Origin: Schmidtea polychroa
Taxonomy: Eukaryota
Length of the DNA stretch: 64,000 nucleotides
NCBI GenBank assembly: GCA_044892525.1
Contig: CM097887.1
Span: forward strand, 27,900,001-27,964,000
Direction: 5' to 3'
The translations under genes were made by a program, and so were the position numbers. The notes beneath the pieces were generated by a model. That model had not been told where the DNA came from. It worked only from the letters and a program-made list of their open reading frames with translations, and ran no database searches. Below are positions 27,408-53,397 of the stretch, in pieces (position 1 is the stretch's first letter; every line of letters begins with the position of its first letter).

Positions 27408-28370
27408 TGTTGATTATTACCTCAACATATCAAATACTGTTGCTTCATTAAAAAAGCTTTCACTTTCAAGTGACAAAGTTAAGTTAAATTGAAACCACAA
27501 AAATAAAGCACTTGCTATGAAAGGCCACTTTATTTTCTTTTTACAAAATATTTAATTAAAATTGTGGCTATTAATATCTAAACCACAATAATGATTTCGT
27601 AATTGAAACACTTCAGTTGTAAAGGAGAATAAATTAGGTCAACAGCTACAACCACGCAATACTTCATCTGAAAGTTTTTGTAAAATACATACTCCTAATA
27701 AATATTATTCTGTTTGTTAACGTGAAATGTCTAATAGGTTATATTTTAAATTTACCGCTAAGCTTACACTTGAAAAATATAATAAACTAAAGTTTGAGAT
27801 CAAAGCTTTTAAATATGACTACAAGGATAATGTCAGAAGAATTCCAATCAAAACCTTCATACAAACAAATTACTACAGAACCGGCCTCAATAAATATATA
27901 ATTAATATCTATGTAAAAATCTGATAGGATAGTGTGGGACACGTCATCAATTATCAATATATTTTTTAAAATAATATCACGACAAAATATAACAACGTTC
28001 ATACAACCAATTTCATCGACCGTCATTTTTGCATACAAGAAATACTAATTATCAAAGTTTGACAGCTACTTCAAATCTGTCGGTGTGGCATATGACTTTT
28101 GAAAATACTACATTGAGGCATGGTATAAAGAAAGTCGGAAACACTGCAATATGGTAATTTCAATTCTTAATAAATCCATCCATATTCCATATGATTTCAA
28201 AGATTATGAATTAACATTTAATTATATATCTGATTAAATAATGTTTTTATTTTTTATCTTTATATGTGAAAGACAACTGTATAAATTCTTTCATTTTTTA
28301 AAATATTTATTTTTTATCTTTTATTAAAAACAGTTGTATCCACTCTTTGATTTTTTATATTATATTCTTA

Positions 28371-29459
28371 TGTTAGGGATAGGCCTGGAGCCTTGTTGAC
28401 AAAATAAATAAAAATTACTAAAATTAGAAATAGTATAAATAAAAATAATAAAGTATTACCAAAAATAAAAGATGGGTTTTATTAATTACTATTAATAGAA
28501 TTAAGTTGTATATAGGAATATTTGATAATACTATTACTATATATAGTAATTATAAAATTGCTATTGATATAATAAATAATTAAAATATGATATAAATACT
28601 GGTTCAAAACGAGAACCAAGGACGAGAAAATTGACGGAAAAATTGACGATAAAAGTAACGATAAAACATTGAGACAATAATTTGGGGCGAGAAACATTAA
28701 GAAGATTTTGGACGATAGAATTAACAAGAAAAGAAAACGTATTTCGGAGAGAGACGATAAATTAGTTGATTGATTTAAAGAAACGTGATCAAAGAATCAC
28801 GGTGTTTATTTTAATTAAATTCAACACAAGTCTGAGTTGTTGAAATTGGATCGCACACGAAGAAATTCCGGCTATAATTTCCAACCAATATCAATTCTAC
28901 TATAAATTGATCAGCAAATTAGTTCAGAGGGAGAAGAAATAAGAAATAAGCTAAGAGCCAAGAATATTATCGTCACAGAATTGTAAAAAGGATTGGTCTA
29001 CAACAGTGTTTGGCAATTCAGGTAGATTATATTGTCAAGGGATAAACTAGTATCCTGTTGAATAGATAAAATTAAAGCGAATACAAAGTATAGATCTTTT
29101 ACTTTAGTGTTCCCTGGGAGCCTCAAAATCATTCCCTCTTGCTTGCCCAACTCTTTAGTCATATTGCGATCGTTGTGCTACACAGGAGCCATCGATTTCT
29201 TGCAGGCTGTGGTAAACAGTAAGGATTAATAAATCCGTTTTCTTGTATTCTTTGCACATATATTATAAATATCTGTTGTAAATTATTAAATACATTTTTA
29301 TAAAAGAGAAAGGCGTTTGTTGTTAATTCAGTGATTTAAAACTCATATACGCAACCACATTAAATAACTTATTTATATTTATTTTTATTTATTTATCTTA
29401 ATTAAGTTATTGGAGTCATTTGTGTTAAGATCTGTAGTCCCCGTTTTTCGATCTTAACA
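28371..29459 (+). repeat. 5' LTR
   Basis: TGTTAGGGAT...GATCTTAACA, with TGTTA/TAACA inverted ends; no difference from the 3' LTR seen by eye. Confidence 0.97.
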
Positions 29460-29462
29460 TTT

Positions 29463-29480
29463 TGGTGAGCCCGACGTGAT
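29463..29480 (+). promoter_or_regulatory. Primer-binding site for tRNA-Trp
   Basis: TGGTGAGCCCGACGTGAT lies 3 nt after the LTR. Its reverse complement ATCACGTCGGGCTCACCA matches the vertebrate tRNA-Trp 3' end as I recall it (ATCACGTCGGGGTCACCA) at 17 of 18 positions. Confidence 0.85.
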
Positions 29481-29596
29481 ACAATTTACGGGGGAATAAG
29501 AATTTTATTTATAAAAGGCAAACATCTTTTTGAATCATTGAGTTAAGAAATAGAAGGGTAATAAATTTAAGACCAGGTAATAGAAACCAGCAAATA

Positions 29597-32398
29597 ATGG
29601 CAGAGATAAATAATTTACAAAATTTAAACGAGAATAATTTACAAAATAATAATGTGCCAATAGCTCAACCACCAGTGGTAGATTTTATGAGATACCCAAC
29701 AATTCCGATTAAACCATTTAGTGGAAACCCAGAGGAGTTTCCAGAATTTATGTCCGAATATTTTCAGTTAGCCAGAGCATTAGGATTCCCGGAACCGGTA
29801 ATGATTTTGAGATTACCTTTATATTTAAAAGGGATGGCGCGGGAAATATATAACGATGTTATAATAGCCGAGCATCCAGTTGAATGGAATGTATTACGAT
29901 TAGCGTTACAAAACAGAATATTACCGGGGGATGCAACTAGAGTGCTGAGACAACAGTTTTATAATAGGCGACAAAATTCGGGTGAGCATGTTGGGGAATT
30001 TTCATATCAAATAATGATGTTGGCAGAGAGAGCATTTGGTAATAGGGCAGCCTGGAATGATGCAACTAGAGCATTAGTAAAAGATCAGTTTTGGTCAGGG
30101 TTATCGTCAGCAATGAGAAATGCACTCAGTTTACACATAGGAGATAATTTAGAGGAATTAACTCGCAAAGCGTGTTTAATTGAAAGTAGCATTGAGAAAT
30201 CAAATAATTTTGCTATTAGTAGCAACAAGTCAGACATTGAGTGTTTTAATTGTCATAAAAAGGGACATATGTCAAAAGATTGTAAAAGTAGGAATAATTC
30301 TCCAGGGGACAAATTATGTACCAAGTGTGGGAGAAATAATCATGTGGCATCAAACTGTAGAATTTCGGACCTAAATTGTGAGAAATGCAAGCGCAAGGGA
30401 CATGTAGCGTCAGTTTGTAAAGCTAGTTTTGGGGGGAATAATTCAAATAATAATAATAGTAGAAATAGAAGCCCCGATAGGAATTTTCGTGGTAATAATA
30501 ATAATAATTTTAATAATAATATTAAAAGGGATGAAGTAAATTCGGGGGGTAAAATTAAATGTCATAAGTGTGGAAAATTTGGTCATATTATGCGTTCTTG
30601 TCCACAAAATGAGTTATCTAATAACAATGGTAGTAGTAACAATGGAAATAATCGATCGAAGCAGACAACGTTTGCAGTGAATTCAGATCACAAATTAACG
30701 TATTTGCAGCAGCTTGAATTAGAAATTCAAGAAGAGAGAAACAGGTTAGCGAGGCTAACAACAAATGAAACTGATGGGTACGATGAAAATGAAGGTGTTT
30801 ATATGACGTCAGCCAAAAGGAGGCGAAATAAAAATAATTATGTAGAACTTGAAGTGTTGATGCTTCAAGAAAGTCCACAGGAGGACAACGAGGAAAAGAC
30901 TATGGTCATAGAACCAGAAGTCTGTGAGGGTTTACAGGTTTCACCCAGGAAAAATCTAGTGGCTGTGGCCATGGAGCCAGAAGCCAACAGAGAAATAGAA
31001 GGTTTACCGGTTTCACCAGTTAAAAATCGTAAGGCTTTGGACATGGATCCAGTAGCTAATGAAATTGTTCCAACAGGAGTTTTGGAAAAAAGATGGGCTT
31101 CGGTCAGTGAACCGGAAGTTCTTATAGCCACATCATCCATGCGAGGTGAGTGTGGTAGTGAACCAATAAAGGTTCGAGAAGCATCGAAAGAGGAAAGAAA
31201 TCCCATCGATGACTGTAGAAAAATATTATTACGCAAGAGCGTATGGCAAAGAGAAATGAGACAGAAATTAGAAAACATTCGTTTAAACCCCGTTAATGAG
31301 AATGAGGTTGACAAAGTAATGGATATCATATCAGAGTTAAATAGAGATAAGGAATATTATCCAGAATTGAGAGAAATTCTGAGAAATATTGGCCTAAATT
31401 GGAAACAAAGAGAGAATCTGGAAGATTCTACAATTTTTGTATCTTTCCCAAAGGGTTGTTTTCGTAGATATACAATTAATCCAAGCGAAAAGGTAGAAGC
31501 ATTGGCAAAGAGAGTTTCTGTGGTAAAACCTCAATTGAGATGCAAATTATATTTATTGGGAGAAAAATTATTAGAGGGAGAAACCCTGTTAGATTGTGGT
31601 ATACTACCAGGGAAAAATATGGTTATAAAAGCAAAGTTTCACAAGGAAACTGTTACTGTAGTGGACTTGGATAATGTCCTTACTATAAGCGAGATTGAAA
31701 TTGATCAATTAAATCAAATATCAGCCGTACCACATAGGTTGGGAATCGAGCTGATGAAAAACCCAAGAGATGGGGAAGCCATTAAGATGATAATGGATTG
31801 GATACTGGAGTTGCGAATCCCAGTAGATACTCTTAGAGAGATAATGCCATTGATGGTGCCTTTAGTAAAAGAGACATCACAATTTCAGACACAAGCAAAG
31901 ATGCTGTTGATTAAAAATGGACATGCTATCAGACATTTGGAAGGTAGACAAGGTCCAGTGATGTTAGATATCAGGATACCCAGGAGAGGACACCTGATAC
32001 AACAATTTTCGTGTTATCATAGGGTAAAGAAACTGAGAAAAAGGATATCAGAAATATTAAAAGAGTCATTCCTAATAATGATACATGGTTGTCAGGTGGA
32101 TGACGACGAATTTCTAGTAGATGTTGGATGTTTTCCCAATGAGGAAACAGTTGTATTAATATTACTGGTAGAGTTTCCAGAGGATCAATGGGCAACTTTG
32201 AGATTGCCAGATAATGCTGAAATGGAGGATGAAACAGTACATCCTGAGCAAAATCAAGTAGACGGGAATACTCATCAGGAACCCGTAACTACAGTAGACT
32301 TAGATGAAGAGATAGATAAGTATCTCAAGGAGCTTGATAACACTGAAGACGAGTTAATCGAAATATTTCCTACAGGGAAGATAATGAAGTACAATTAA
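29597..32398 (+). CDS. gag: Extended Gag, 933 aa: capsid-like region, four CCHC zinc knuckles, C-terminal extension with two ubiquitin-like domains
   Basis: Capsid-like KPFSG-PEEF...LPLYLKG-A; knuckles CFNCHKKGHMSKDC, CTKCGRNNHVASNC, CEKCKRKGHVASVC and CHKCGKFGHIMRSC; Ubl-like segments near 31430-31640 and 31955-32175. Confidence 0.9.
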   Translation: MAEINNLQNLNENNLQNNNVPIAQPPVVDFMRYPTIPIKPFSGNPEEFPEFMSEYFQLARALGFPEPVMILRLPLYLKGMAREIYNDVIIAEHPVEWNVLRLALQNRILPGDATRVLRQQFYNRRQNSGEHVGEFSYQIMMLAERAFGNRAAWNDATRALVKDQFWSGLSSAMRNALSLHIGDNLEELTRKACLIESSIEKSNNFAISSNKSDIECFNCHKKGHMSKDCKSRNNSPGDKLCTKCGRNNHVASNCRISDLNCEKCKRKGHVASVCKASFGGNNSNNNNSRNRSPDRNFRGNNNNNFNNNIKRDEVNSGGKIKCHKCGKFGHIMRSCPQNELSNNNGSSNNGNNRSKQTTFAVNSDHKLTYLQQLELEIQEERNRLARLTTNETDGYDENEGVYMTSAKRRRNKNNYVELEVLMLQESPQEDNEEKTMVIEPEVCEGLQVSPRKNLVAVAMEPEANREIEGLPVSPVKNRKALDMDPVANEIVPTGVLEKRWASVSEPEVLIATSSMRGECGSEPIKVREASKEERNPIDDCRKILLRKSVWQREMRQKLENIRLNPVNENEVDKVMDIISELNRDKEYYPELREILRNIGLNWKQRENLEDSTIFVSFPKGCFRRYTINPSEKVEALAKRVSVVKPQLRCKLYLLGEKLLEGETLLDCGILPGKNMVIKAKFHKETVTVVDLDNVLTISEIEIDQLNQISAVPHRLGIELMKNPRDGEAIKMIMDWILELRIPVDTLREIMPLMVPLVKETSQFQTQAKMLLIKNGHAIRHLEGRQGPVMLDIRIPRRGHLIQQFSCYHRVKKLRKRISEILKESFLIMIHGCQVDDDEFLVDVGCFPNEETVVLILLVEFPEDQWATLRLPDNAEMEDETVHPEQNQVDGNTHQEPVTTVDLDEEIDKYLKELDNTEDELIEIFPTGKIMKYN

Positions 32399-32460
32399 AT
32401 CAAGATGAAACAAACATCGGAGCTAGTACATCGCGACAAGTCGAGCCACCAAGAGAAAGA

Positions 32461-35145
32461 GTGAGCCCGAAGTTAGTCGAGAATAAAAAGAAAAGAGAGA
32501 GAAGGGGTAGACCGAGGAAAAGTCAAATGAACCCACCCCCAAGAGAACTTTTAAAACCAGTTACAATTCAAAATGTAACTAAGCAGGCTTTAGCAGGGAT
32601 AGCTAGCCAAATTGATAAAAGCGTTGGAGACGCTAGTGATAAAACGGAAACATGGAAAATACTAAGTCAAATCTTACGATTGATCAAGCCTGATTGGCAA
32701 ATTAAGAAAGATAAAAGTGTTAATGTTGACAAAATTGCAGAAAAAGTCAAGAAAGCTATGGAAAAGATTCCAGGAAGCACCACGGAACAGGAGATGTTCG
32801 AAATAGCAGGGCAATTCATAGATGAAGGCCTGACGAAAGGGAAAATGATAACGATTCTAGCCTTAATGTTTAAAAATGCATTGAGCATAATTAAAGATGA
32901 TTCGTCGAAAATTCCAGCAGCCATAGACAAGCTGACTGATATCATCGAAGTGAATTTCAGAACATGGATGACTGAACATAAGTTTTGGGATATAAAAGAA
33001 ACGAAAGGAAAATATGAATTAAATGAAGAATTGTTGACAGAAAATATTTCAAGTAGTCCACGGGGAACAGGTGGATTTACTAGTTGGATGATGATGTTGT
33101 TGGTAATGATGGGAATATTGCGACAGACAAATTCCCTAACGGCATATGATTGCAGTGAACCAATATTATCGCGAATCTACTCATTAGTAGACACAGTGGA
33201 ATGCAAGGAAGCATATCCAGATAAAGTTGCAAAAAGGGAAGACGTGGAATATCATGTTTATCAGCAAACAGAGTTTTACAGAACCAGAGTGAGGGAATGT
33301 CGAATACAGAGAGCGACGTTCGAATATTACTGTGGATCGAATAGTTATTCAGCATTTTTAGGAGCTAAACTCATTCCGATACCGTTAATCATCCCACCAG
33401 AGGATTGTGTAAATGCTTTTCGGTCAAAAACAGTTAAAATAGATCATGAGGTGACAATTACCGCAGAAGAAGGGAAAAAGTTGGGTATAACTATTACCCG
33501 GGGAGGACCGATAGCAGATGATGGTTCTTGTCATGGTAGAAAGAAAGTTAGAGGTTCTAATGTAGTAAACTATGTGGTAACAGTTGAGGACTACACAGTA
33601 GAGCTGATAGAGTACGAAGGAACTTTCGAAGTATCCACGGGAAAAATGATGTCTCATCCAGAATGCAACGTGAAATATGGTTATTGTAAAACCAGTTTAG
33701 CAGTATTAACGTACCAATCAATGAGAGATTTTTGTGATTTAGGATACCTGAAAAAGGTAGTATTTTCAAGGCTAGATGGGAAAAGCTTTACGTCTCAGGA
33801 TTCACAACAAAGTGGTTGGGGAGACAAGATAGCTCACAAAACGAAAAAGGAAGTGGTACCAGAGAAAAGCACAGCAGTAGTATTAGTCTCAAAGGATTCC
33901 ACAGATGCAATTCGTTTAGTCAGAAAGAAACAGACAACAAAATGTGGTGTACCAATATTTGAAACCAACTACAAGGGAATATACTTAGCATACAAGTATG
34001 TTCCAGCAGCAGAATCATTGCATCTATCAGATATTAAAATAGCCAAGTATATCAATAATAATATTGATTTCTTGTATCATGATCTGCAGAAACAATTATT
34101 AGATGTGTATCAGGAAGTGATCCTGAACGACTGTCGTTTGAATCGGGAAATAATACGAAATAGATTAGCAATATCTATAGCTAATCCGGATTTAATAATG
34201 CCAATGTTGACAGAGGAAGGAACATTTGGTAGAATTTTGCGTGAAGCAATTTATAGTTACCAATGTAAAGCAATAGAGGTAGAAATCACCAAATATGATC
34301 GATGTACATTGGAGCTACCTGTGAAATATAAAGGAAAATTGAGATTCCTGATGCCAGTATCACACCAGTTATTAAAGGAGGATACCTCACCTTTAACTGC
34401 AATTTGCAATCCAGCAATGTCACCATTATACAAAATAAACAATATTTGGATTTCATTGCCAGACAGAAAGCCGCCTTCAAAACCAGTTGAAGTGCTTCAA
34501 GCTACAAAGTTAGAAACTAAAATGGAGTTTCAACCATTAAACGAAATGTCAAAAGGCGGAGTATATACTCCGGAAGATATAGAAGAAGCTCGGAGAGCAA
34601 TTGTGTTTCCCCAAATCAGAGATCGGGGAGTGACAGAGATAATAACAAGAATCTATCAATCATATGATGGAAAACCGGACTATAATCTATTATTTGGACC
34701 AGAACATTACAAAGAAGCTGCATCAAATGTAATACGGAAAATCTGGGGTAGATTTACAAGCTTTGGCATTTTTGTAGCAGGATGTTCAGGTATATATGCA
34801 ATAGTGATGATATTGAAAATAATTATATCGCAATTATTTTCCACCTATAGTATCTTCAAGATCGGGGGATGGTCTTGGAAGTTGCTGTTAGGAATGTGTC
34901 CAGTTTGTGCAGATTTTGCAGTATTTCATCATCATAATAAAGAGATTAAGAGAATGAAGAGGCAAACTATAAAGAAACATGAGTTAATAATGTATGAACC
35001 TAGTCATCGAGACGATGACAATTCTGACGAGGGAGGTAACCTAGAGGGCTATGAGACCTCAGACAACACCTCAATAAAACCAGACAACAAAAAACCGAAA
35101 TTTCAAAATTTTGAAAATAGTACTTTACAAACAGTACCCTGTTAA
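32461..35145 (+). CDS. env: Envelope polyprotein: N-terminal Bcl-2-like domain, internal signal peptide, chuvirus/gB-like fusion glycoprotein, TM anchor (frame open from 32347; first ATG 32527)
   Basis: Hydrophobic WMMMLLVMMGILRQTNS then LTAYDC; cysteine pattern YYCG-S, GSC-G, C-G-C, CG-PI-ETN, YQC-I-V, C-LELPV-Y, GGVYTPE, WG-FT-FG; TM near 34760-34840. Confidence 0.85.
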   Translation: MSPKLVENKKKRERRGRPRKSQMNPPPRELLKPVTIQNVTKQALAGIASQIDKSVGDASDKTETWKILSQILRLIKPDWQIKKDKSVNVDKIAEKVKKAMEKIPGSTTEQEMFEIAGQFIDEGLTKGKMITILALMFKNALSIIKDDSSKIPAAIDKLTDIIEVNFRTWMTEHKFWDIKETKGKYELNEELLTENISSSPRGTGGFTSWMMMLLVMMGILRQTNSLTAYDCSEPILSRIYSLVDTVECKEAYPDKVAKREDVEYHVYQQTEFYRTRVRECRIQRATFEYYCGSNSYSAFLGAKLIPIPLIIPPEDCVNAFRSKTVKIDHEVTITAEEGKKLGITITRGGPIADDGSCHGRKKVRGSNVVNYVVTVEDYTVELIEYEGTFEVSTGKMMSHPECNVKYGYCKTSLAVLTYQSMRDFCDLGYLKKVVFSRLDGKSFTSQDSQQSGWGDKIAHKTKKEVVPEKSTAVVLVSKDSTDAIRLVRKKQTTKCGVPIFETNYKGIYLAYKYVPAAESLHLSDIKIAKYINNNIDFLYHDLQKQLLDVYQEVILNDCRLNREIIRNRLAISIANPDLIMPMLTEEGTFGRILREAIYSYQCKAIEVEITKYDRCTLELPVKYKGKLRFLMPVSHQLLKEDTSPLTAICNPAMSPLYKINNIWISLPDRKPPSKPVEVLQATKLETKMEFQPLNEMSKGGVYTPEDIEEARRAIVFPQIRDRGVTEIITRIYQSYDGKPDYNLLFGPEHYKEAASNVIRKIWGRFTSFGIFVAGCSGIYAIVMILKIIISQLFSTYSIFKIGGWSWKLLLGMCPVCADFAVFHHHNKEIKRMKRQTIKKHELIMYEPSHRDDDNSDEGGNLEGYETSDNTSIKPDNKKPKFQNFENSTLQTVPC

Positions 35146-36268
35146 AGCAAAAAGGAGGAAAAGGCAGGAGTGGCCTGTAAATTATTTGTCACCATACGAG
35201 GGTAGAAAAAAGATAATACCAGAACGAGTCGAAGAGGAAATGTTAAAGAGGTTCGAGTTCAGAACAAATACAGATATATTACCATCTACCTCATACCCAA
35301 CGTATAAAATGAAGTTCGAGACAATGCCACCCTTGGGTACATCAGTATTAGAGATGGTACCAAAATATCCATTCAGCACGTTGGAACGGCTAAAGGAAGA
35401 GTATAAAGATGAAATAAAATCAGAAAATGACAAGGATAGTGATGATCAACAAAAGTTCAGAGACAATATTCGAGGAATCTCAACAATATTAATGGTCAAT
35501 ATGGGTAAAAAGACTCATAAACCTACGATTAAATTAAAAGTTAACAGGCATACGGTACATGCCATTATTGATTCAGGATCAGATTTGACTTTGATTGAAG
35601 CAAATTTATTAAACGAAAAAGAATTACAAGCAATAGTGCCGACATTAACTGTTGCATCAGGAGCAAATGGACAACCTATCAATGTTATCGGAACATTAGA
35701 TTGTGAATTAAGGTTGTGTGATCAAAAATTTAGACACGATATCAAAGTCACTAGACAATGTATGGCAGAACGTATCGTGGGAATAGATATATTGAAAAAG
35801 TTAAAAGATATTGTATTCGATTGTGCAACAGGCGAATTAGTAAAAATGACGGGTAGAAAACGGGAAACCTACAGTGTGGATGTAGTGTTTTTGGGTAGAA
35901 CGGTGAAAATACCACCGAGGACCGAAACAGTTTGTTTTGTAGCAACACACCAAGAGGTGGAAGGAGATGTTATTTTCAAACCAAGTGAGCAGTTCGTAAA
36001 TAGGTATAAAACACCTATGGTGCAAAACTTGGCAACAGTACGGGGAGGAAGAATCCCGATTAGATTAACGAATCTAGCAAGCAAATCATTGAGATTATAC
36101 CCAGAGACTAGAGTGGGTAAAGTGATACAACTATCTAACATGCAGAAAGAGTCTGAATCGATATTATCAGTAGAAGAGGATGAACGAGATCCTGATATCG
36201 AATATTACGACGCACCGAGCTGCGATAGTAAAACCTTATCTAGAAAGGAAAACATCAGAGTTAACTAA
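35111..36268 (+). CDS. pro: Aspartic protease region of Pol (frame open from 35078; first ATG 35240), ending in an in-frame TAA
   Basis: VHAIIDSGSDLTLI active site and IVGIDIL motif; same frame as the RT ORF, separated by a single TAA (36266-68). Confidence 0.9.
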   Translation: MKIVLYKQYPVKAKRRKRQEWPVNYLSPYEGRKKIIPERVEEEMLKRFEFRTNTDILPSTSYPTYKMKFETMPPLGTSVLEMVPKYPFSTLERLKEEYKDEIKSENDKDSDDQQKFRDNIRGISTILMVNMGKKTHKPTIKLKVNRHTVHAIIDSGSDLTLIEANLLNEKELQAIVPTLTVASGANGQPINVIGTLDCELRLCDQKFRHDIKVTRQCMAERIVGIDILKKLKDIVFDCATGELVKMTGRKRETYSVDVVFLGRTVKIPPRTETVCFVATHQEVEGDVIFKPSEQFVNRYKTPMVQNLATVRGGRIPIRLTNLASKSLRLYPETRVGKVIQLSNMQKESESILSVEEDERDPDIEYYDAPSCDSKTLSRKENIRVN

Positions 36269-39200
36269 TTGTTACGTAAATATGACCAAATTTTCGCAAA
36301 ACACGAGTATGACTTAGGGCAAGTTAATATTTTAGAGCATGAAATTAAATTAACAGAAAATAAACCGATAAAAATACGCCCGTACAGAATACCTCAAAGT
36401 ATACAAGGGTCCGTTGATAAACAAATTAAATTAATGCAAAAATACAATATAATCAGACCCAGTAAATCTCCATATTCCTCACCTTTGGTGGTTGTAGCTA
36501 AAAGAGACGGCTCAGTTAGATTATGCAATGACTATAGGAAATTAAATGAACAAACAGTTAGTGATAATCACCCGCTACCTTTGCTAGATTACATTTATGA
36601 TAAAATGAAAAATTCAAAGTTGTTTACTGTGATGGATGCACAGAAAGGCTTTTACCAAATAAAGATGAGCGAAGACTCAATTCCTATGACAGGATTTTCT
36701 ACAAGTAGTGATCATTTCGAATATTTAGTAATGCCGTTTGGATTAAAAGGAGCCCCTCCAACTTTCCAGAGGGCAATGAATATCATGTTGATGGATGCAC
36801 ATCACGCAATGGTATATATAGACAACATTATCATCTTCTCGGAAGACTTAGATAAACATTTGGATCATCTGGAGGACATTTTCAAAAGAATAATTATGGC
36901 AAACCTGAAAGTAAAGCCAAGCAAATGCAAATGGGCAGAATCGGAAGTGATTTACGTAGGGCATGTAATATCACACGATTGCGTAAGACCAGATCCGGCT
37001 AACACGGATAAAGTAAAGAATTTCCCACAACCAGTGAATGTGAAACAAATCAAAGGATTTTTAGGGTTAACGGGATATTACCGGAAATTTATACGAAACT
37101 TTTCAGCAATTGCTTTTCCTCTAACTACCTTAGAAAAGAAAGGTATAAAATTTTTATGGGGAGAGGATCAGCAACAGGCATTTGACAAGTTAAAAGATGC
37201 ACTATGCAAACCACCAATTTTACGATTTCCAGATTTTAGAAGACAATTCATGGTGATGACCGATGCATGTACAAGAGGTATAGGTGCAGTTTTGGGGCAG
37301 AAAGATGAAATTGGTGATGAGTACGCAGTAGCATATGCAAGTCGTGGATTGAAGCCACACGAGAAAAGTTATGCTGTAATAGAATTGGAAGCATTAGCAT
37401 TAGTATTTGCAGTGGAAAAATTTAGTCATTACCTATGGGGCAGAAAGGTAATTTTCTATACAGATCATAGACCCTTGCAATGGCTGTTAAAACATAGAGA
37501 CGAAGCATCAAAATTAGTAAGATGGGCATTGAGATTACAGCCATATAATATCGAAATTGTATATCGTAAAGGTAAAGCTAATGGTAATGCAGATGCATTA
37601 TCACGAATGGAGCAAGAGCCTGAGTTAGAAGATATAAAGGAAGGAAGATTAGAAGGAACTATCTTCATGCTAACAAGAGAGGCTAACACTTTGAGCGATT
37701 TAGTAGAAGCACAGAAAAATGATGACGAAATCAATATGATCAGACAAGCCATAGAAGCAAAGGCCATACCAAATGAATTTCAGAAATATTGGGAGAAACA
37801 TAAAGATAAATTCATATTGGAAGAAGGTCTAATCAAATATGTGGAATCAAGAGATAATGTAATTTTAGTGCCAAAGAAATACAGAGAATCACTATTATTA
37901 CAATACCACGATGGAGCACTGGGAGGACATCTCTCAGCTAGACATACATTGTCAAGATTGAAAATGAAATACTTTTGGCCGAATATGAAAGATGATGTTA
38001 AAAAGTGGTGTCAATCGTGTAAGATATGTATAACCAGAAGGAACACAGGTAGGAAACCACATGTTCCATTAAAACCAATGCCAGTACCGTCCTCGCCATT
38101 GGAGATGACCGCTATGGATGTACTAGGGCCGTTTAAAGAATCAAAGATGGGAAATAAATTTATCATAGTATTTTGTGACTACTTAACGAAGTGGCCCGAA
38201 GCATTTCCAATTCCGAATCATAAGGCAGACACAATTGCCAGAATTTTTGTAGAACAAATTGTATTTAGATATGGTGTTCCGACAAAATTGCTTACAGACA
38301 GAGGAAAGGATTGCATGAGTAATTTGTTAAAAAGTATTAATGATTATTTTGGTATTTTAAAATTAAATACCTCACCATACCACTCACAGACGGATGGATT
38401 GGTAGAGAGGTTCAATGGAACCTTGGCAAACATGTTATCATCATACGTAAACTCAGGTCAGACGGACTGGGATGTACACATACCATCATGTTTGTTTGCG
38501 TATAGAAATGCTGTTCATTCAGTAACAGGAGAAACACCTTTCTATCTGATGTATTTAAGGCATAGCAAGATGCCAGCGGATCTTATATTTTATCCAAAAG
38601 CATCACAGAACTGTGATGAGGGAAACTACTTATTCGAGATGAGAGAAAGAATGCAAGAAGCCTGGAAGAAAGCAGGTTTGAACATTCGTTATAACCAAGA
38701 AACAATGAAGGAATATCATGATCGTAAAGCGAAAGATCATGGGTTTTTGGTAGGAGATTATGTCATGTTAGAAGGACATTACAACAAAAAAGGTTTATCT
38801 CCTAAATTAATGAGAAATTACAAAGGGCCGTTTCAAATTTTGAAAGTCACAGAAACCAATTTAGTCTTACAGTTAGTGGCAAACAGAAAAGCAGAACCGA
38901 TAATGGTTCATGCAAACAGATGTAAAAAGATAGCCCCACCAGAAAAGGAGAAACCAAAATCAGAAATTGATGAATTCGAAATAGATAAGAAATCGAAAAA
39001 GAAAACGTTAGAATCATATAAAAGTATCCTAAAGGGACAACCAGAACGATACCCTTTACGATCTCGGCAAATCCCGAAAACAGTTACATTTTTAGCAGTG
39101 ATTAGCTGTGTTATGATGATGGGACAGGCATTCGAGGTATTCACACCTAAAGCCAGTCAACATCCAGATATCGAATATCAACGAACAGATAGAGCATTCA

Positions 39201-40057
39201 GATTTCATTTAACGAATATACAATGGCATAGATATGATCTATATTTGGTAGCTGCTGAAAGAGGGATATCTTTTCACTTGAATACATGGGATCGAGTGAA
39301 AGTAATAGAGGGACTTATGCCGAATACAAGTTATCTATTAGAAATCAAGACATTCTTTGCAGACCCAAACGTTTTTGCAGATGGAGGAGATTGTGTAGAT
39401 AAAGCAGCATGGATTTTGAAGACTGCAAAATTTACCAAAAAAGTAGAGATTTCATATCTCGGGCAGATAGTTAGATTTACTCATCCACGGTGGAACAGAA
39501 ATGATACATCTTCCACTCACGATTGGAGGACGAATAATAAAATTGCGTTAATTGTCATATTAGAAGACGACCAGCGAGTCGAGAGATTAGTGCTCAACCA
39601 TGCGTATCTAAGTAGAAGATGGAAAATCAAACCAGATACCGTGACAAAGGCGAACATTTCGTATTTGGAATTTACGGAGAGAACCGGTTGGTATACAATA
39701 TATCAAGAAATAATAAATCTAATACCTCCCACAAGAGGAGAACTAACTAGCAAAGAAGGAAAGGCTAGATTAGTGAATATTCCTGGTTGTAAAGGAATAA
39801 ATGCTTTAGATTGGTTTAGTATTAGAAAGGTAGCGAGTGTAAAACAGCCCCGCATAACTAAAAAAATTAATAATTGTAGTTGTCAAAATACGTTAAAGGG
39901 GGCAGCGAGGGTGAAAACGCCAACATGGCTAATGTTAATTATGATAGGGGGAGTAATTTGCATGATTTTAATTTTGCTCTTAACCACCCTATGGATGTTT
40001 AGATTAAATATACGAGATATGCGTTATTGGGAAAATATTTACGAAACCGAGGTATAG
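36269..40057 (+). CDS. pol: RT - RNase H - integrase, with C-terminal signal-like/FN3-like/TM extension; RT active site reads YIDN
   Basis: LCNDYRKLN, MPFGLKGAP, YIDN; TDACTRGIGAVL, ELEALA, YTDHRPL, NADALSR; HHCC finger, MDVLGP, LTDRG, VERFN; TM WLMLIMIGGVICMILILLLTTLWMF. Confidence 0.95.
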   Translation: MLRKYDQIFAKHEYDLGQVNILEHEIKLTENKPIKIRPYRIPQSIQGSVDKQIKLMQKYNIIRPSKSPYSSPLVVVAKRDGSVRLCNDYRKLNEQTVSDNHPLPLLDYIYDKMKNSKLFTVMDAQKGFYQIKMSEDSIPMTGFSTSSDHFEYLVMPFGLKGAPPTFQRAMNIMLMDAHHAMVYIDNIIIFSEDLDKHLDHLEDIFKRIIMANLKVKPSKCKWAESEVIYVGHVISHDCVRPDPANTDKVKNFPQPVNVKQIKGFLGLTGYYRKFIRNFSAIAFPLTTLEKKGIKFLWGEDQQQAFDKLKDALCKPPILRFPDFRRQFMVMTDACTRGIGAVLGQKDEIGDEYAVAYASRGLKPHEKSYAVIELEALALVFAVEKFSHYLWGRKVIFYTDHRPLQWLLKHRDEASKLVRWALRLQPYNIEIVYRKGKANGNADALSRMEQEPELEDIKEGRLEGTIFMLTREANTLSDLVEAQKNDDEINMIRQAIEAKAIPNEFQKYWEKHKDKFILEEGLIKYVESRDNVILVPKKYRESLLLQYHDGALGGHLSARHTLSRLKMKYFWPNMKDDVKKWCQSCKICITRRNTGRKPHVPLKPMPVPSSPLEMTAMDVLGPFKESKMGNKFIIVFCDYLTKWPEAFPIPNHKADTIARIFVEQIVFRYGVPTKLLTDRGKDCMSNLLKSINDYFGILKLNTSPYHSQTDGLVERFNGTLANMLSSYVNSGQTDWDVHIPSCLFAYRNAVHSVTGETPFYLMYLRHSKMPADLIFYPKASQNCDEGNYLFEMRERMQEAWKKAGLNIRYNQETMKEYHDRKAKDHGFLVGDYVMLEGHYNKKGLSPKLMRNYKGPFQILKVTETNLVLQLVANRKAEPIMVHANRCKKIAPPEKEKPKSEIDEFEIDKKSKKKTLESYKSILKGQPERYPLRSRQIPKTVTFLAVISCVMMMGQAFEVFTPKASQHPDIEYQRTDRAFRFHLTNIQWHRYDLYLVAAERGISFHLNTWDRVKVIEGLMPNTSYLLEIKTFFADPNVFADGGDCVDKAAWILKTAKFTKKVEISYLGQIVRFTHPRWNRNDTSSTHDWRTNNKIALIVILEDDQRVERLVLNHAYLSRRWKIKPDTVTKANISYLEFTERTGWYTIYQEIINLIPPTRGELTSKEGKARLVNIPGCKGINALDWFSIRKVASVKQPRITKKINNCSCQNTLKGAARVKTPTWLMLIMIGGVICMILILLLTTLWMFRLNIRDMRYWENIYETEV

Positions 40058-40263
40058 GGGGAAAGTCTCACCATATACTAGGAAGTGTAAATATATATAG
40101 TTATTTATTTTATATATATATGTTATTTATATTAGTATGTAGACTAATGTGGGCTCAAATGAGCATTGGTAAAATCAGACATCAGCGTATGTCGACTTTG
40201 GTTACCCTGCGAGGGTCTATCACGAAAGTGATAAAAGCTGTTAATTATTTTATTTTTAGAAAA

Positions 40264-41055
40264 ATGAATTATAACAGAGAATCAAAGCCGCCAGTCAAAG
40301 CAAATCGACGACACCCATTGGCAACGTACAATTCCCAAACTCGAGTTGAAACTGAAGTGTATAGCACCTATAAAGAAGAGTATGTATATCGGTTCATCGG
40401 AACCACGGTCGCAGCAAAAATGAATCACCTCACCTCAAACTATTGGTATTATCCCAGGAGAGTGGATATTCCAAACGACTTCAAATTTCCAGGAGGGCCT
40501 CGAAGGCAAATGATGGTAACGGTTATAAATAACCAAGGTAGATTAAAATTGGCGGAACTATGTAGAGAGTATGGTTCATGTCCGAAAATAGAAAACTTGT
40601 GGATTCATGCGATCAATAGGCCATTCACGGTGTTTATGGCGGGATTAGAGTTACCTGTTGAATTAGAAAAACAGTGTACTCTGGAGATATACCACGCTGA
40701 TGGACGAGAACGGAATATTATGATCCAGGCAGCGGCGGTGGACACCATAATCGCAATAGAAATCTTAGACTTCAGGAAGCCATACTCTATAGTTAGCAAA
40801 AACGAGCCAACTTGGATTTATAATGTAAATGAAGACGATATACGGCAGTGTAAATCATTTGTGAGGAAGAAGTTATCCAAAGCCGAGGAGAACGAGGCTA
40901 CAATTTTCATATCGGCAGGTTTTGCCAAATCCCGAATCGAATTGAAGGAGACAATTATCCAAATCGCAATTATGGATATGAGAGGAAATAATTTATTGAG
41001 TGCGGTAGTGACTCCCAGAGATCCAGTAAAACATTACCAAAACGCACCAATATAA
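40264..41055 (+). CDS. 3' accessory ORF (263 aa from ATG 40264); C-terminus resembles the start of a DEDDh exonuclease fold
   Basis: Splice acceptor ttattttatttttag ends at 40259, 5 nt before the ATG; IIQIAIMDMRGNNLLSAVVTPRDPVKHY. Confidence 0.6.
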   Translation: MNYNRESKPPVKANRRHPLATYNSQTRVETEVYSTYKEEYVYRFIGTTVAAKMNHLTSNYWYYPRRVDIPNDFKFPGGPRRQMMVTVINNQGRLKLAELCREYGSCPKIENLWIHAINRPFTVFMAGLELPVELEKQCTLEIYHADGRERNIMIQAAAVDTIIAIEILDFRKPYSIVSKNEPTWIYNVNEDDIRQCKSFVRKKLSKAEENEATIFISAGFAKSRIELKETIIQIAIMDMRGNNLLSAVVTPRDPVKHYQNAPI

Positions 41056-41060
41056 GTTAA

Positions 41061-42272
41061 AAGAACCCGACATTAGAGGAAATTTTGCTTAAGGATCTGA
41101 TCTCGGTAGCCAATCTACCAGTGCAGCGAATATTGGGTATTCGTGACCTTTCGGCAAATAAACTATTGGAAACCAGAGGAGTCCCAAAGATTCATGGTCA
41201 TTACAGATTGGGATTCCTGACAAAAACTTTCCTGCGTACGTTTCCCGGAGAACCAAGAAATTTAGTGGTCACCAATGAGGCACTGGCAATACGTGCTGTT
41301 TATTTACATATCAGGAACGAATGGTTAGACCATATCACGATTCCCCAGGAGGAATTCATTTCAGCAACTACAGCAGCGATAGTTGAACAGGAAATGACGC
41401 AGAAGAGGAGATTACCTGAGCAACCATCTACATCTGAGCAACCCCAACCTAAGAGGAAATCACCTGTGGATCTACCACCGCCTCCAGCTATATCTATTGG
41501 AGAAGAAGATGAATATGAAACATGTGCTAGTGAGATAGAGACAGCAAAATCACCTAAACAATCATCGGGAGCTGCCTATCAGCCAAAGAATAAATCGGAT
41601 AATGCGGTCAGAAAAGAAAATCCAGAAGGGGGCAAGGTGAAAAAGATGTTAAAGAAAATGTTACCCATAAAAAGAGACAAGTCGAAGTTAAAGTTGAAGA
41701 AAGTTGTTAAACCGTCGGAAGGAACGACAAAAGAGACACCCAGCAGTTCGGAAGATAGGACTATTAAACCTCAAAAGATATTCAGCGAACCAGATGATGA
41801 CATTATGGAAGTTGCCTTTCAACCTCCGGTTAAGGAGATGCAGGAAGCAATAAAGGTTAAATCTGAACCTGTGGTAAGGCAGAAATTGTTAAAGATTGCC
41901 AAGGAGAATATCATCAAGAAACCAGTTTCGGTTGATGTGGACGGTTTCGAACCAATGTGGTACAAACGTCCGGATAGTAAATGGAAACCCAGAGCGAAGG
42001 AGTATGACTGCCAACCAGTCACGAGAATGGCAGTCAATAATAATCAAAAATATGATGTTTATGACGTAGACGGGATCCCTTACGTGGTGTCTACAGTCAT
42101 ATTAACGAGTGCTCTGGATGGTAAGCCTTTGGCAGTGAGTTTTGAGCCAGAAGTCTTACAGAAGAGGAAAAAGAAGTTGCTGCAGCAATACGTCGTTGCC
42201 AATAGCTACAGCACGAAGGAGTTGCACCTTTACAAAGTTCCCGACCCAGATCCCGATGATCTGGATATCTAA
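41061..42272 (+). CDS. 3' accessory ORF (about 400 aa): exonuclease-like N-terminus, charged disordered middle, unknown C-terminal domain; probably once continuous with the preceding ORF
   Basis: Frame open from 41061 (KNPTLEEI...ILGIRDLS...RLGFLTKTFL...TNEALAIRAVY); 1.2-kb ORF inside the element. Confidence 0.6.
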   Translation, partial: KNPTLEEILLKDLISVANLPVQRILGIRDLSANKLLETRGVPKIHGHYRLGFLTKTFLRTFPGEPRNLVVTNEALAIRAVYLHIRNEWLDHITIPQEEFISATTAAIVEQEMTQKRRLPEQPSTSEQPQPKRKSPVDLPPPPAISIGEEDEYETCASEIETAKSPKQSSGAAYQPKNKSDNAVRKENPEGGKVKKMLKKMLPIKRDKSKLKLKKVVKPSEGTTKETPSSSEDRTIKPQKIFSEPDDDIMEVAFQPPVKEMQEAIKVKSEPVVRQKLLKIAKENIIKKPVSVDVDGFEPMWYKRPDSKWKPRAKEYDCQPVTRMAVNNNQKYDVYDVDGIPYVVSTVILTSALDGKPLAVSFEPEVLQKRKKKLLQQYVVANSYSTKELHLYKVPDPDPDDLDI

Positions 42273-42500
42273 TCCAAGAGCGTTGCCACCCAACATGTGT
42301 CGTCGAATTCAGAATGTGTATAAAAGGACTTAACTATTATTTGATTTGTGCTATCCAGTGTTTTGACATTCATTATTTGTGATCTAAAACATTAATTTTG
42401 TGTTTTTTCTTATTTGATTAATTTTTATGTTTTTATTGTAATACTGTTTACCAAAAGCCTTCTTTAGTCTTGCTTTTATCTTGTTTTCGAGACGAAAATC

Positions 42501-42517
42501 TTTTAGGGGGTAAGACT
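42501..42517 (+). promoter_or_regulatory. Polypurine tract
   Basis: ttttAGGGGGTAAGAct immediately before the 3' LTR TG. Confidence 0.8.
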
Positions 42518-43606
42518 TGTTAGGGATAGGCCTGGAGCCTTGTTGACAAAATAAATAAAAATTACTAAAATTAGAAATAGTATAAATAAAAATAATAAAG
42601 TATTACCAAAAATAAAAGATGGGTTTTATTAATTACTATTAATAGAATTAAGTTGTATATAGGAATATTTGATAATACTATTACTATATATAGTAATTAT
42701 AAAATTGCTATTGATATAATAAATAATTAAAATATGATATAAATACTGGTTCAAAACGAGAACCAAGGACGAGAAAATTGACGGAAAAATTGACGATAAA
42801 AGTAACGATAAAACATTGAGACAATAATTTGGGGCGAGAAACATTAAGAAGATTTTGGACGATAGAATTAACAAGAAAAGAAAACGTATTTCGGAGAGAG
42901 ACGATAAATTAGTTGATTGATTTAAAGAAACGTGATCAAAGAATCACGGTGTTTATTTTAATTAAATTCAACACAAGTCTGAGTTGTTGAAATTGGATCG
43001 CACACGAAGAAATTCCGGCTATAATTTCCAACCAATATCAATTCTACTATAAATTGATCAGCAAATTAGTTCAGAGGGAGAAGAAATAAGAAATAAGCTA
43101 AGAGCCAAGAATATTATCGTCACAGAATTGTAAAAAGGATTGGTCTACAACAGTGTTTGGCAATTCAGGTAGATTATATTGTCAAGGGATAAACTAGTAT
43201 CCTGTTGAATAGATAAAATTAAAGCGAATACAAAGTATAGATCTTTTACTTTAGTGTTCCCTGGGAGCCTCAAAATCATTCCCTCTTGCTTGCCCAACTC
43301 TTTAGTCATATTGCGATCGTTGTGCTACACAGGAGCCATCGATTTCTTGCAGGCTGTGGTAAACAGTAAGGATTAATAAATCCGTTTTCTTGTATTCTTT
43401 GCACATATATTATAAATATCTGTTGTAAATTATTAAATACATTTTTATAAAAGAGAAAGGCGTTTGTTGTTAATTCAGTGATTTAAAACTCATATACGCA
43501 ACCACATTAAATAACTTATTTATATTTATTTTTATTTATTTATCTTAATTAAGTTATTGGAGTCATTTGTGTTAAGATCTGTAGTCCCCGTTTTTCGATC
43601 TTAACA
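42518..43606 (+). repeat. 3' LTR
   Basis: Same length and apparently the same sequence as 28371-29459; followed by the TSD CTTA. Confidence 0.97.
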
Positions 43607-44004
43607 CTTATATAAATAATTTTATCGTCATACATTAAAACTATTAAAACACATTGGCGAATAATTTAATAAATTTTATTTTCTTTCTCTCAACCACCTT
43701 ATCGGTGCATTGGGAGACAATTCTTCTCGAAAATGAAAATATTGCCTCTATTCAACATGTGTATAAAAATTTTGCAAAAACTGCAATGTTAAATGAAGGT
43801 TAAACATGAAATTTTTGAGGTCCACAGAATCTCAAACCGATGATTTTTTATATATAACTAAGTCGACACTGGTTAATAAATTTTATTGATATTACAAATA
43901 CAAAATGGTTACCTGATAAAAATATTAAAGTTTCTTTTGTTTATTTTCGTATAATATTGTTGGGTATTTTGTACAAGCCGGTATCACTGTCTGACTCTTT
44001 GGTG

Positions 44005-46725
44005 CGGGGCGAAGCCAGGAATTCATGAGGAGGGCTGCCCAAAAATCTTTTTGAATCATAAAATTTTAACATTTATTTCAAAAATTTTAACTTTTACATA
44101 ATTCATACATTTATTTTGATTCTACGAGCAGATTTTGACATTTCAATCAAAACTTCTTCGATCTCAATTGACTCATCTCTATAAATATTTAATAAAACTA
44201 ATCCATTTAAGCGATCCTCAGTCATAGTAGCACGGTCAAAAGTTTTGATTAAATGAAATTTACTAAAGCTTCTTTCAAGCGTACAATTTGTAACCGGAAG
44301 GGCTACTAGTATTGAAAGCAACTTTAAAACGTTCGGAAAAAATGTACTATTACAAGACTTAATATGATCGATTATTGAATTTGATAATCTCAAATTCCAC
44401 ATTTTAATTTCTTACCTTAATTGAGTTGCTGAAGCTTGCAATTAGTCACCAAAGTCCAAAATATCATCAATAGCTTTCGCAATTTCTTCTTCAGCAATAA
44501 TGTTATGGTTAGTAATGATTCGAAATCCTGTCAAAATTTCTTTATGCTTTTGAAATCTTTCCTCAGGTTCGCTGCAGAAATTACTAATAAGCGGTTTGAA
44601 TAAAATATTATGATAATATTCTTTTGTGCTTAAAATAAAAATACGTGGTCTTCCACAAAATCTCGGTTTTCGAATATCAATTTCATATTTTTCAGCAATT
44701 TTTGTTGCATCCGAATATATCGCATCAAACTTGTTTGATAAATCTCCCTCAATTTCCTTGAATGTGTAAATAATATACGATGATGCTCCTATAGCTTGTG
44801 TTATGCCGATTGAAACTGGTTGTAAATATCTGTTAAGTCATACAGTAATGTTCAGCGTATAGTCAAGCCACAATAAAGACATTATAAATTCAAATGTAAG
44901 AATCGTATTCAAGAATCCAATTGCTAAATGTGAAGCATCATCATTCCATTCAACAATGCTCTGTAAGTCACACAACTCCATCGAAAAGTTCAGTGAAAGT
45001 TGCAGTAGTTTGATGGCGTCCTATAAATCGTTTAGGACATATATTTTTAACTTCTTTTTTGTGCTTTCTGGAGATTTTTCTGCATTGCTTTCTAAATGAA
45101 CTTGCTGACGCTTTGATGTATTAAAAAAGTTGAAAATTTGCTTAATTGTCTCAGTACAGCTTTTAAGATAGGCAATATTACACGAATCTCTCAATGCCAA
45201 ATTAAGACAGTGACTCAAGCAATGAATGTAGATAGCACTTGGAAAACTATCTCTAATTCGTCTTGCAACGCCTGATTTCTCTCCTGCCCTAAGAGTCGCT
45301 TCATCATATACCTGATCGACACAGAAGCTCTAATCTACATTAAGTTCTTGAAAAGTTCTCATTATCTCTGATGATATTCCATCGGCGGTTTTATAGATTA
45401 TTGGAACAAATTTTGAAAAGTCTTAAAAAAGCTTAAAAGCTTAATCGAAATCGAAGTAACGCACTCCAATAGCCAATTGTTCTTTGTTAGTTCTATCCGA
45501 AGTTTATCAGCGTAAACTGAGAAAAATGAAGACTTTTTTAATTTAGCTATTCGACTTTTTTGATAATAACTTTTTCAATTATTGAGATAATTTCGTTTTG
45601 AATCGTAGGACTCAGATAAAATGCATTTTTTGGACCATTTTGTGCTAGTTCGTTAAATTCCTTATCCAAATGTGCTCGCCATCGAAGGAGGACTCGTAAA
45701 TTTCCATCATTTACACTGTTATCTGTTGAAATTAATGAGCCTGAATCGTATTTTCAACGAAACGAAATGTTATGACGACCACATAAAATAATAGATTCTA
45801 TGATTGGATATAACAATAAGTGATTCTTCTGCTTTTCCAAATTCAATTCTTTTTTATTTATCATATTAATTGGCTGAGTTTTTCCTTCCGACATAGACCT
45901 TAGAGATGTTACAATAGCTACAGTTTTCATATGAGAAGCAGTGCTTTGATGATGTGTAAAATTTTCCGAACTTTTATGCCAATTTTTGAAACCCACCGAA
46001 ACCACATTTCGATATTCCTCGCGTTCAAAAATGTAGCAAAATTTACAAAAAGCACTATCTGTAGACTTTGAATAAGCCAACCATGGAAAAGTTTTAAACC
46101 TAATCCACTGAAATTTTCGATCCTTCCGTGTATAGTTGTCTGTGGATAGTTGTATGAATAATCCGGGTTTTCGATCATATTGATTGCATTGATTTTTTCA
46201 TCATCGCTCAGTGATGTATCATTTTGATAAAATCTAATGTCACCAGATAGTACATTACTTGATCGATTCGATGTCTCCCTAGTTGCTGATAGACTTTGAG
46301 TTGTATCTCTAGTGACTGGTAGACTTTGAGTTGTATCTCCAGTTTCTGCTTGAATAGGTGTTTCTGATTTTGCCTCATTCGCGACGTAACTATTGTCATT
46401 ATTATTGTACTCATCAATTCCATCCGTTGTCTTTTTTATTTTCGTAAAATAGTTAAGAATAGATATATCTTTATTTCTCTTCATTTTATTTCTAGAATAT
46501 ATTAAGTTATTCTTTACATGAACGTTTAAAAATGATTTGATTCGATTTACTTACCTTTAATTAATGATCAATTCAATTAAATCAATTTTATTGGTTGAAT
46601 TTATTTTTTAAAAAATTTATAAACAATATGTTTAATTCAAAAAAATTAAAACCGTTAAAACTTGTATTAAATACCAATCAAGAGGGGGGTGCCCGAGCAT
46701 GTAAGACCCCCTGGCTACGCCCTTG
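44005..46725 (-). mobile_element. hAT DNA transposon (ZMYM1/THAP12-like transposase, decayed), 2.7 kb
   Basis: Imperfect TIRs CGGGGCGAAGCCAGG / CCTGGCTACGCCCTTG; 8-bp TSD CTTTGGTG / CCTTGGTG; TTF-finger YSKSTDSAFCKFC, HCLSHCLNLAL, LPVTNCTLERSFSK...MTEDRLNGLVLLNI. Confidence 0.9.
44103..46484 (-). pseudogene. hAT transposase pseudogene (several stops and frameshifts)
   Basis: ORF pieces 45927-46484, 45754-46080, 45021-45218 and 44103-44402 are colinear parts of one transposase. Confidence 0.88.
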
Positions 46726-53392: not shown

Positions 53393-53397
53393 TTTTG

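Follow-up and report, generated by a model that had tools for sequence, protein, structure and literature searches.

A young, broken Gypsy element of the compact, Burro-like GAG-ENV-POL kind in Schmidtea polychroa

A 64,000-nucleotide (nt) stretch of the Schmidtea polychroa genome (GenBank assembly GCA_044892525.1, contig CM097887.1, positions 27,900,001 to 27,964,000 of the forward strand; hereafter, the window) contains a retroelement of 15,236 nt bounded by long terminal repeats (LTRs) at window positions 28371 to 43606. The element is a compact, Burro-like GAG-ENV-POL Gypsy element, a kind that is already known, and the copy in the window is young, recently inserted, broken in four places and defective, such that its six open reading frames (ORFs) are the product of decay. 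On the overall account that we consider probable, this is a Ty3/Gypsy element with two genes, of the GAG-ENV-POL (Burro-like) type, present here as a defective copy, with the polyprotein processing and the roles proposed below. The features of the element are as follows.

28367..28370, no strand: left target-site duplication CTTA, from sequence comparison of the flanks
28371..29459, + strand: 5' LTR, 1089 nt, TG...CA, 0 differences from the 3' LTR
29463..29480, + strand: primer-binding-like site, 18 nt, starting TGG, from sequence
29597..30601, + strand: Gag at the start of ORF1, with a capsid-like part and four CCHC knuckles (Pfam and motif; Retrotrans_gag weak, E 0.047)
31412..31651, + strand: ubiquitin-like domain 1 (profile searches)
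31955..32191, + strand: ubiquitin-like domain 2 (profile searches)
32347..32398, + strand: break 1, frame change in the window copy (frame map and copy comparison)
32584..33000, + strand: Bcl-2-like domain with degenerate BH1/BH2 (Pfam Bcl-2, E 0.0045 for the window)
33085..33141, + strand: predicted internal envelope signal peptide (hydrophobic stretch before a conserved AYDC; putative cleavage)
33142..34824, + strand: class III-type fusion glycoprotein, Monjiviricetes/chuvirus-like, gB-type (PF24664, E 8.7e-80)
34768-34824, + strand: envelope membrane anchor, from sequence
35078..35145, + strand: break 2, frame change in the window copy (frame map and copy comparison)
35516..35806, + strand: aspartic protease (Pfam RVP, E 6.5e-8)
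36266..36268, + strand: break 3, in-frame stop in the window copy (copy comparison)
36497..38857, + strand: reverse transcriptase, RNase H and integrase with zinc finger, core and weak SH3-like end (Pfam)
39083..39139, + strand: second predicted internal signal peptide (hydropathy)
39149..39730, + strand: predicted ectodomain, unit 1 seven-strand beta and likely FN3-like, followed by unit 2 (predicted fold for unit 1)
39929..40057, + strand: transmembrane helix and short tail ending ETEV, ORF1 stop (hydropathy and sequence)
40003..42272, + strand: ORF2, N-terminal domain, ISG20/REX4-like exonuclease domain and low-complexity C-terminal part (profile searches)
about 40850-41330, + strand: exonuclease domain without catalytic residues (alignment with family C)
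about 41055-41082, + strand: break 4, within ORF2 of the window copy (frame map and copy comparison)
42505..42515, + strand: short polypurine tract, from sequence
42518..43606, + strand: 3' LTR, 1089 nt, identical to the 5' LTR
43607..43610, no strand: right target-site duplication CTTA, matching the left side

The window copy has six plus-strand frames of 954, 932, 396, 1262, 350 and 403 amino acids (aa), spanning positions 29534 to 42272. An earlier reading made from the sequence alone (hereafter, the sequence-only reading) had taken these as a six-ORF layout with about 12.7 kb of coding sequence; the frames and their extent are as it described, but the layout does not hold for the family. 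Open frames were mapped in 10 further genome copies, with each half fetched separately, and the frame is open in 9 of the 10 at break 1, in all 10 at break 2, in 9 of 10 at break 3 (the stop ending at 36268, where one copy is not shown) and, at break 4, in all 8 copies that reach the site. Because other copies are open across the breaks, the window family consists of one polyprotein gene (ORF1, 3516 aa, a frame in which 10 of 124 genome matches lie) and one accessory gene (ORF2, 775 aa, 11 of 145 matches). Three of the compared copies are unbroken throughout, and the other seven carry breaks of their own. A functional six-ORF layout was rejected, since the breaks are not common to the compared copies where these are readable.

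Two explanations of the breaks other than decay were weighed. Under the functional six-ORF layout, programmed frameshifts and readthrough would control how much Gag, Env and Pol the window copy makes relative to one another, and both the position of the first three breaks near domain borders and the identity of the LTRs speak for this, but we regard it as extremely improbable: none of the four breaks recurs in the compared copies at readable sites, the uninterrupted ORF1 frame persists in 10 copies, and break 4 cuts through the exonuclease domain. It is also very unlikely, if less so, that the locus holds an intact copy into which assembly errors have introduced all four breaks. Identical LTRs beside four lesions are in mild tension, as 0 differences in 1089 positions bound LTR divergence at about 0.3% or less, and either helper-copied defective RNA or assembly error would account for a copy of this age having four lesions. 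However, the same assembly contains many unbroken copies as well as the seven compared copies with their own breaks, and identical LTRs are explained if a defective RNA was copied in trans.

The boundaries are those of a Ty3/Gypsy element, with TG...CA LTRs and a 4-bp duplication that lies in the 4-6 bp range of this group, and the identity of the two LTRs places a tight bound on the age of the window copy. The 18-nt primer-binding-like site presumably resembles the 3' end of tRNA-Trp, although the cognate tRNA was not found in the genome; the exact pattern has two genome matches, and ARAGORN calls a tRNA in neither. The middle of the LTR (window 28631-29040 and its 3' LTR counterpart) cannot be aligned to most of the other copies, whose similarity to the window LTR is confined to its two ends, at 82-90% identity, and 2 of 10 compared copies match the whole window LTR at 98-99%. 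This mixed matching points to LTR subtypes on a common internal region.

The order of protease, reverse transcriptase, RNase H and integrase, with Gypsy-type RT_RNaseH and Integrase_H2C2 domains, likewise conforms to Ty3/Gypsy, and a BEL/Pao origin was rejected because pol carries these Pfam domains. Between gag and pol lies a class III envelope of the gB type, as in the GAG-ENV-POL elements known as HSV/gB-type errantiviruses. To this extent, the sequence-only reading was accurate: the LTRs without differences, the target-site duplication, the primer-binding-like stretch and purine tract, the Gag with four CCHC knuckles, the two ubiquitin-like domains, the Bcl-2-like domain, the signal peptide, fusogen and membrane anchor of the envelope, and the order of the enzymes were all recovered.

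Family searches with PF24664, RNase_T, Bcl-2 and BIR, together with one protein search, yielded six further families in the genome (B to G, the window element being family A), which supplied the alignment depth for the profile tests. All six keep the order of the element, with an in-frame envelope that follows gag and precedes the protease, and are 28-39% identical to the window element in the envelope and 44-58% in pol. ORF1 measures 3300-3450 aa in families B to E where complete, about 3050 aa in F and about 4790 aa in G. Family G, a giant of the 30-kb type that is 33% (envelope) and 44% (pol) identical to the window element, has ankyrin repeats after the integrase and a 392-aa BIR gene downstream, and appears to fit the published description of Burro.

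Every cargo segment is under purifying selection. In a comparison of the window copy with one copy of a sister subfamily, the ratio of nonsynonymous to synonymous substitution rates (dN/dS) is 0.02-0.25 in all 12 computable segments, cargo included, two ORF2 segments being saturated at synonymous sites. The ratio is 0.25 for the ubiquitin-like region, 0.14 for the Bcl-2-like domain, 0.05 for the envelope, 0.12 for the FN3-like unit, 0.20 for the unit that follows it, 0.18 for the transmembrane helix and tail, 0.05 for the N-terminal part of ORF2 and 0.03 for the second half of the exonuclease. The synonymous rate (dS) climbs from 0.09 in Gag to more than 1 in the 3' half, and this rise along the element points to recombination between subfamilies.

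The sequence-only reading had held this combination of domains to be undescribed, and this claim fails. The Burro section of PMC6431247, which cites Jurka 2007 and Grohme et al. 2018 for Burro/GYPSM1, describes planarian Burro as one frame with Gag-CCHC, Ubi2/SUMO-like, BCL2 and mononegavirus-like envelope domains followed by protease, reverse transcriptase, RNase H and integrase, and proposes that Burro elements are integrated proviruses that meddle with apoptosis and ubiquitination. The window family has the same single-frame order, with the ubiquitin-like, Bcl-2-like and envelope domains between gag and pol; Burro is thus a described family of the sort that the sequence-only reading had itself named as decisive against its claim. 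The two differ in scale and cargo, as Burro/GYPSM1 is given there as exceeding 30 kb, with an ORF1 of 4873-5140 aa, MATH/TRAF, BIR and ankyrin cargo and a dUTPase-like region between protease and reverse transcriptase, versus 15 kb, 3516 aa and no Pfam match to such cargo in the six frames of the window. A dUTPase has no support in the window element: 50 of 300 shuffles score as high as the linker profile against a host dUTPase frame, and a Pfam dUTPase search of the genome found no element copies. Strict membership in Burro was rejected on the size of 15,236 nt and the lack of MATH, BIR and ankyrin domains. A tree of reverse transcriptases, built with unnamed rows and poor outgroups, leaves the relation to the giant as a fork without resolution.

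Other published elements are similar in part. The accessible portion of PMC13524379 lists, for Schmidtea mediterranea, six GAG-ENV-POL elements with spans of 14.5-18 kb, including Smed_errantivirus_4 (14.9 kb, with 8 copies and without an assigned primer tRNA), which has the gag-env-pol order and gB-type envelope of the window element. A 252-residue envelope segment of Smed_errantivirus_4 is collinear with the window element and identical at about 164 of 252 residues (65%; a hand count that applies to the envelope segment only), and the envelopes of the other five elements are, in the same portion, visibly more distant. The terms Bcl, ubiquitin, fibronectin, PDZ, exonuclease and Burro are absent from the main text of PMC13524379. 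Anakin and other BEL/Pao elements, as described in the available parts of PMC7642597, PMC10084718 and PMC12440569, carry a chuvirus-derived glycoprotein of the same broad family but belong to a different superfamily, the window pol being of Ty3/Gypsy type. According to the available part of PMC8532177, BURRO1 RNA increases upon PIWI knockdown. The Burro section of PMC6431247 makes no mention of a membrane protein after the integrase, a PDZ-type tail or an exonuclease, and we found no published description of a second membrane protein with such a tail or of an exonuclease active in some families and dead in others, although the figures of Grohme et al. 2018 may label them.

The envelope is the most widely traceable part of the element. 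A hydrophobic stretch directly precedes the conserved AYDC in all 14 frames examined, and within its own genome the envelope DNA finds matches of 88-100% in all 40 scored places (268 candidates). A scan of 1.84 billion representatives with the ectodomain returned 1161 matches at E values up to 0.001, the best being long unnamed polyproteins in which a protease follows the envelope, with reverse transcriptase and integrase in 4 of the 9 scanned. Some of these polyproteins also carry a ubiquitin-like or Bcl-2-like profile, and the weaker matches are glycoproteins of 600-800 aa, one cluster of which is named from a beetle. A word-index search of the envelope among longer proteins matched 1 of 8000 candidates. 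Three library proteins (P0013, P0014 and P0022) have an envelope followed by two or more successive protease-like domains.

Within the cargo upstream of the envelope, the family profile of the ubiquitin-like domains matches ISG15, NEDD8 and ubiquitin at E values of 7e-6 to 7e-5 (single-domain chains), and there are two such domains per element in families A to E and one in F. Pfam Bcl-2 matches all 10 aligned members at E values up to 0.1 (best, 1.9e-6), the match of the window copy falling short of the curated Pfam cut-off, and the family profile matches Bcl-xL at an E of 5.4e-5 in a PDB profile search. Elsewhere in the genome (G000), short Bcl-2-like matches with one in-frame TAG recur dozens of times, in frames that measure about 170-180 aa, possibly as the cargo of another element.

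Downstream of the integrase, ORF1 continues into a signal-like stretch, an ectodomain and a strong transmembrane helix, as the sequence-only reading had noted; its assignment of the ectodomain as FN3-like is moderately supported. FN3 domains are seven-strand sandwiches with a Leu-x-Pro-x-x-x-Tyr motif between strands E and F. AlphaFold2 predicts a seven-strand domain for unit 1 from a 13-row alignment (pLDDT 73, pTM 0.65), the E-F motif is aligned with that of FN3 by hhalign, and 0 of 100 column shuffles reach the hhalign score, so that we consider an FN3-like fold fairly probable. Several results weigh against it. The hhalign probability is 27%, 7 of 200 shuffles reach the score of the window against a host FN3 profile, the best PDB profile matches (ELFN2 and CD45, E 0.13-0.56) are mixed with unrelated chains, and the alignment used for folding was chosen around one motif. 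A single-sequence fold of the segment reaches a pLDDT of 38. The ectodomain of family A does not align with those of B to D (profile comparison probability, 0.5%), and the ectodomains of A, B-E and F have no BLAST or profile similarity beyond the one motif. Single-sequence Pfam and PDB searches gave no match for the post-integrase part or for the ORF2 of the window family.

The C terminus of ORF1 is more constant than the ectodomain in type. Both subfamilies of A end in ETEV, B in ETRL, C in ETWV, D in ETWV or ETFV, E in ETFV, F in STLV or SSLV and G in ATLV, such that all seven families of the genome have the S/T-x-V/L ending of class I PDZ-binding motifs, although the families are related and the count does not amount to seven independent trials. 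The count excludes degraded copies that end early or one codon on (L152, L153, L154 and L162). Class I motifs of this kind occur in viral proteins such as HTLV-1 Tax, papillomavirus E6 and rabies G. By composition, the ending is expected by chance in 0.022 of proteins, and it occurs in 8 of 86 control glycoproteins. Against its generality, none of 12 library polyproteins has the ending, 3 of the 12 running past the integrase with hydrophobic segments and some possibly being cut by contig ends. A literature search for PDZ-binding motifs in the envelopes of gypsy retrotransposons found nothing. Two observations concern other families. In the giant, an extra 341-aa accessory frame (L167:2435-3457 and L171:2512-3534), which opens with a signal-like stretch and includes a transmembrane helix, encodes a third predicted membrane protein. 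In a derivative of family D (L109:3646-7644), possibly a non-autonomous form, one frame leads from Gag, the ubiquitin-like and Bcl-2-like domains and the first signal peptide directly into the post-integrase ectodomain, with envelope and pol deleted and ORF2 kept.

The exonuclease-like block of the sequence-only reading proved to have an ISG20-like fold by profile comparison, but not the catalytic residues of an active RNA-defence nuclease. The ORF2 of family C matches ISG20 (PDB 1wlj, E 5e-7) and ISG20L2 (PDB 7yw5, E 2.2e-9) by itself and aligns with the ORF2 of the window family at an E of 6e-15; the joint profile reaches 3.8e-13 and 6.8e-17 with the two proteins, respectively. The catalytic motifs of these DEDDh exonucleases (four acidic residues and a histidine, Exo I-III) are kept in families C, D and E, partly lost in F and lost in A, which has other residues in place of the histidine motif and of the first two acidic positions. 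The window family thus differs from ISG20 and ISG20L2 in its catalytic residues as well as in being borne by a retroelement, and an active nuclease was rejected for it. No ORF2 match was seen in three fetched copies of family B, and a word-index search of the N-terminal part among longer proteins matched 0 of 2020 candidates, which is weak evidence.

These features suggest how the element might work. The 3516-residue polyprotein likely threads the membrane of the endoplasmic reticulum four times, a topology predicted from a hydropathy scan. Signal peptidase and the element's protease would likely process it to release the coat, the cargo, the envelope, the enzymes and a second surface protein. 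Gag with the ubiquitin-like and Bcl-2-like domains would remain cytosolic, with the envelope signal peptide kept as a C-terminal anchor by analogy with tail-anchored Bcl-2 proteins; the gB-type glycoprotein would enter the lumen and later fuse particles with neighboring cells; and the enzymes would return to the cytosol. The second signal peptide would release a type I membrane protein with an FN3-like ectodomain, possibly the attachment partner of the fusogen. Through its PDZ-binding-type tail, this membrane protein would link particles or sites of budding with the junction scaffolds of the host. ORF2 is probably expressed from its own mRNA, its ISG20-like exonuclease being predicted active in families C, D and E and dead but conserved in A and F, and in the window family its likely role is to bind RNA or a partner from the host, not to cut. 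The window copy cannot make the enzymes or the envelope alone; presumably it either arose by copying in trans or decayed shortly after it had inserted.

Readings that go further in either direction seem less probable than this outline. The ubiquitin-like and Bcl-2-like domains could be spacers or anchors that steer Gag processing and membrane targeting rather than modulators of host apoptosis and ubiquitination, as might be expected from BH1/BH2 motifs that are degenerate and differ between families, from the mid-chain position of the ubiquitin-like domains and their low identity to ubiquitin, and from the reduction to one such domain in family F. Still, six families retain the Bcl-2 fold, and the BIR gene of the giant relative, together with MATH/TRAF in Burro (available part of PMC6431247), forms a recurring apoptosis theme; we do not favor the spacer or anchor role, though we take it seriously. 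Somewhat less likely is that the element is an intracellular retrotransposon whose envelope and second membrane protein serve the assembly of particles on membranes or passage between cells through junctions, not a free infectious virion. One-to-one production of Gag, Env and Pol from a single frame is unlike that of retroviruses, the PDZ-type tail points at junction scaffolds, and very high copy numbers fit transposition in the germline or stem cells, but the fusogen ectodomain is full length, under the strong purifying selection noted above and related to glycoproteins of RNA viruses. At the other extreme, and less likely again, these families would be two-glycoprotein retroviruses with a flavivirus-like polyprotein, in which a central gB-type fusogen is paired with a terminal, fast-diverging FN3-like attachment protein, the PDZ tail docks at cell junctions, and the ISG20-like nuclease or pseudonuclease acts as an RNA-defence decoy. 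We know of no such split between attachment and fusion in reverse-transcribing elements.

Further traces of the family lie elsewhere in the genome. Three head-to-tail copies with a spacing of 14,218 bases, probably sharing LTRs, occur at G000:C2:100.87-100.91 Mb (L092-L094), and a much more decayed copy lies about 37 kb past the end of the element, outside the window (G000:C3:27980000-27990000, L095). Tandem arrays of a 2.87-2.88 kb piece, which covers the latter half of the post-integrase protein, tail included, and the initial two-thirds of ORF2, are present at G000:C3:106.49-106.52 Mb and 107.05-107.23 Mb (L089-L091); these units make up 62 of the 124 ORF1 genome matches and form a satellite derived from the 3' part of the element. 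Within the window, the minus strand to the right of the element (44103-44837) has broken frames that we take to resemble the C terminus of a hAT-type transposase, and positions 53350-54700 are an almost pure A+T minisatellite with units of 10, 17 and 27 nt.

As its core layout is known, the element opens no new class. A half-size counterpart of Burro that keeps the conserved core does show which cargo is ancestral: the ubiquitin-like and Bcl-2-like domains, the fusogen and the second membrane protein recur in seven families of one genome, and MATH, BIR and ankyrin domains are extras of the giants. If the two-glycoprotein reading were true, it would add a new division between attachment and fusion and a route between pluripotent stem cells. 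The 2019 review left open whether such abundant elements act as viruses, exploiting the junctions of the host and escaping RNA defence, and the PDZ-type tail and the exonuclease, predicted active in some families and dead but conserved in others, bear on this question.

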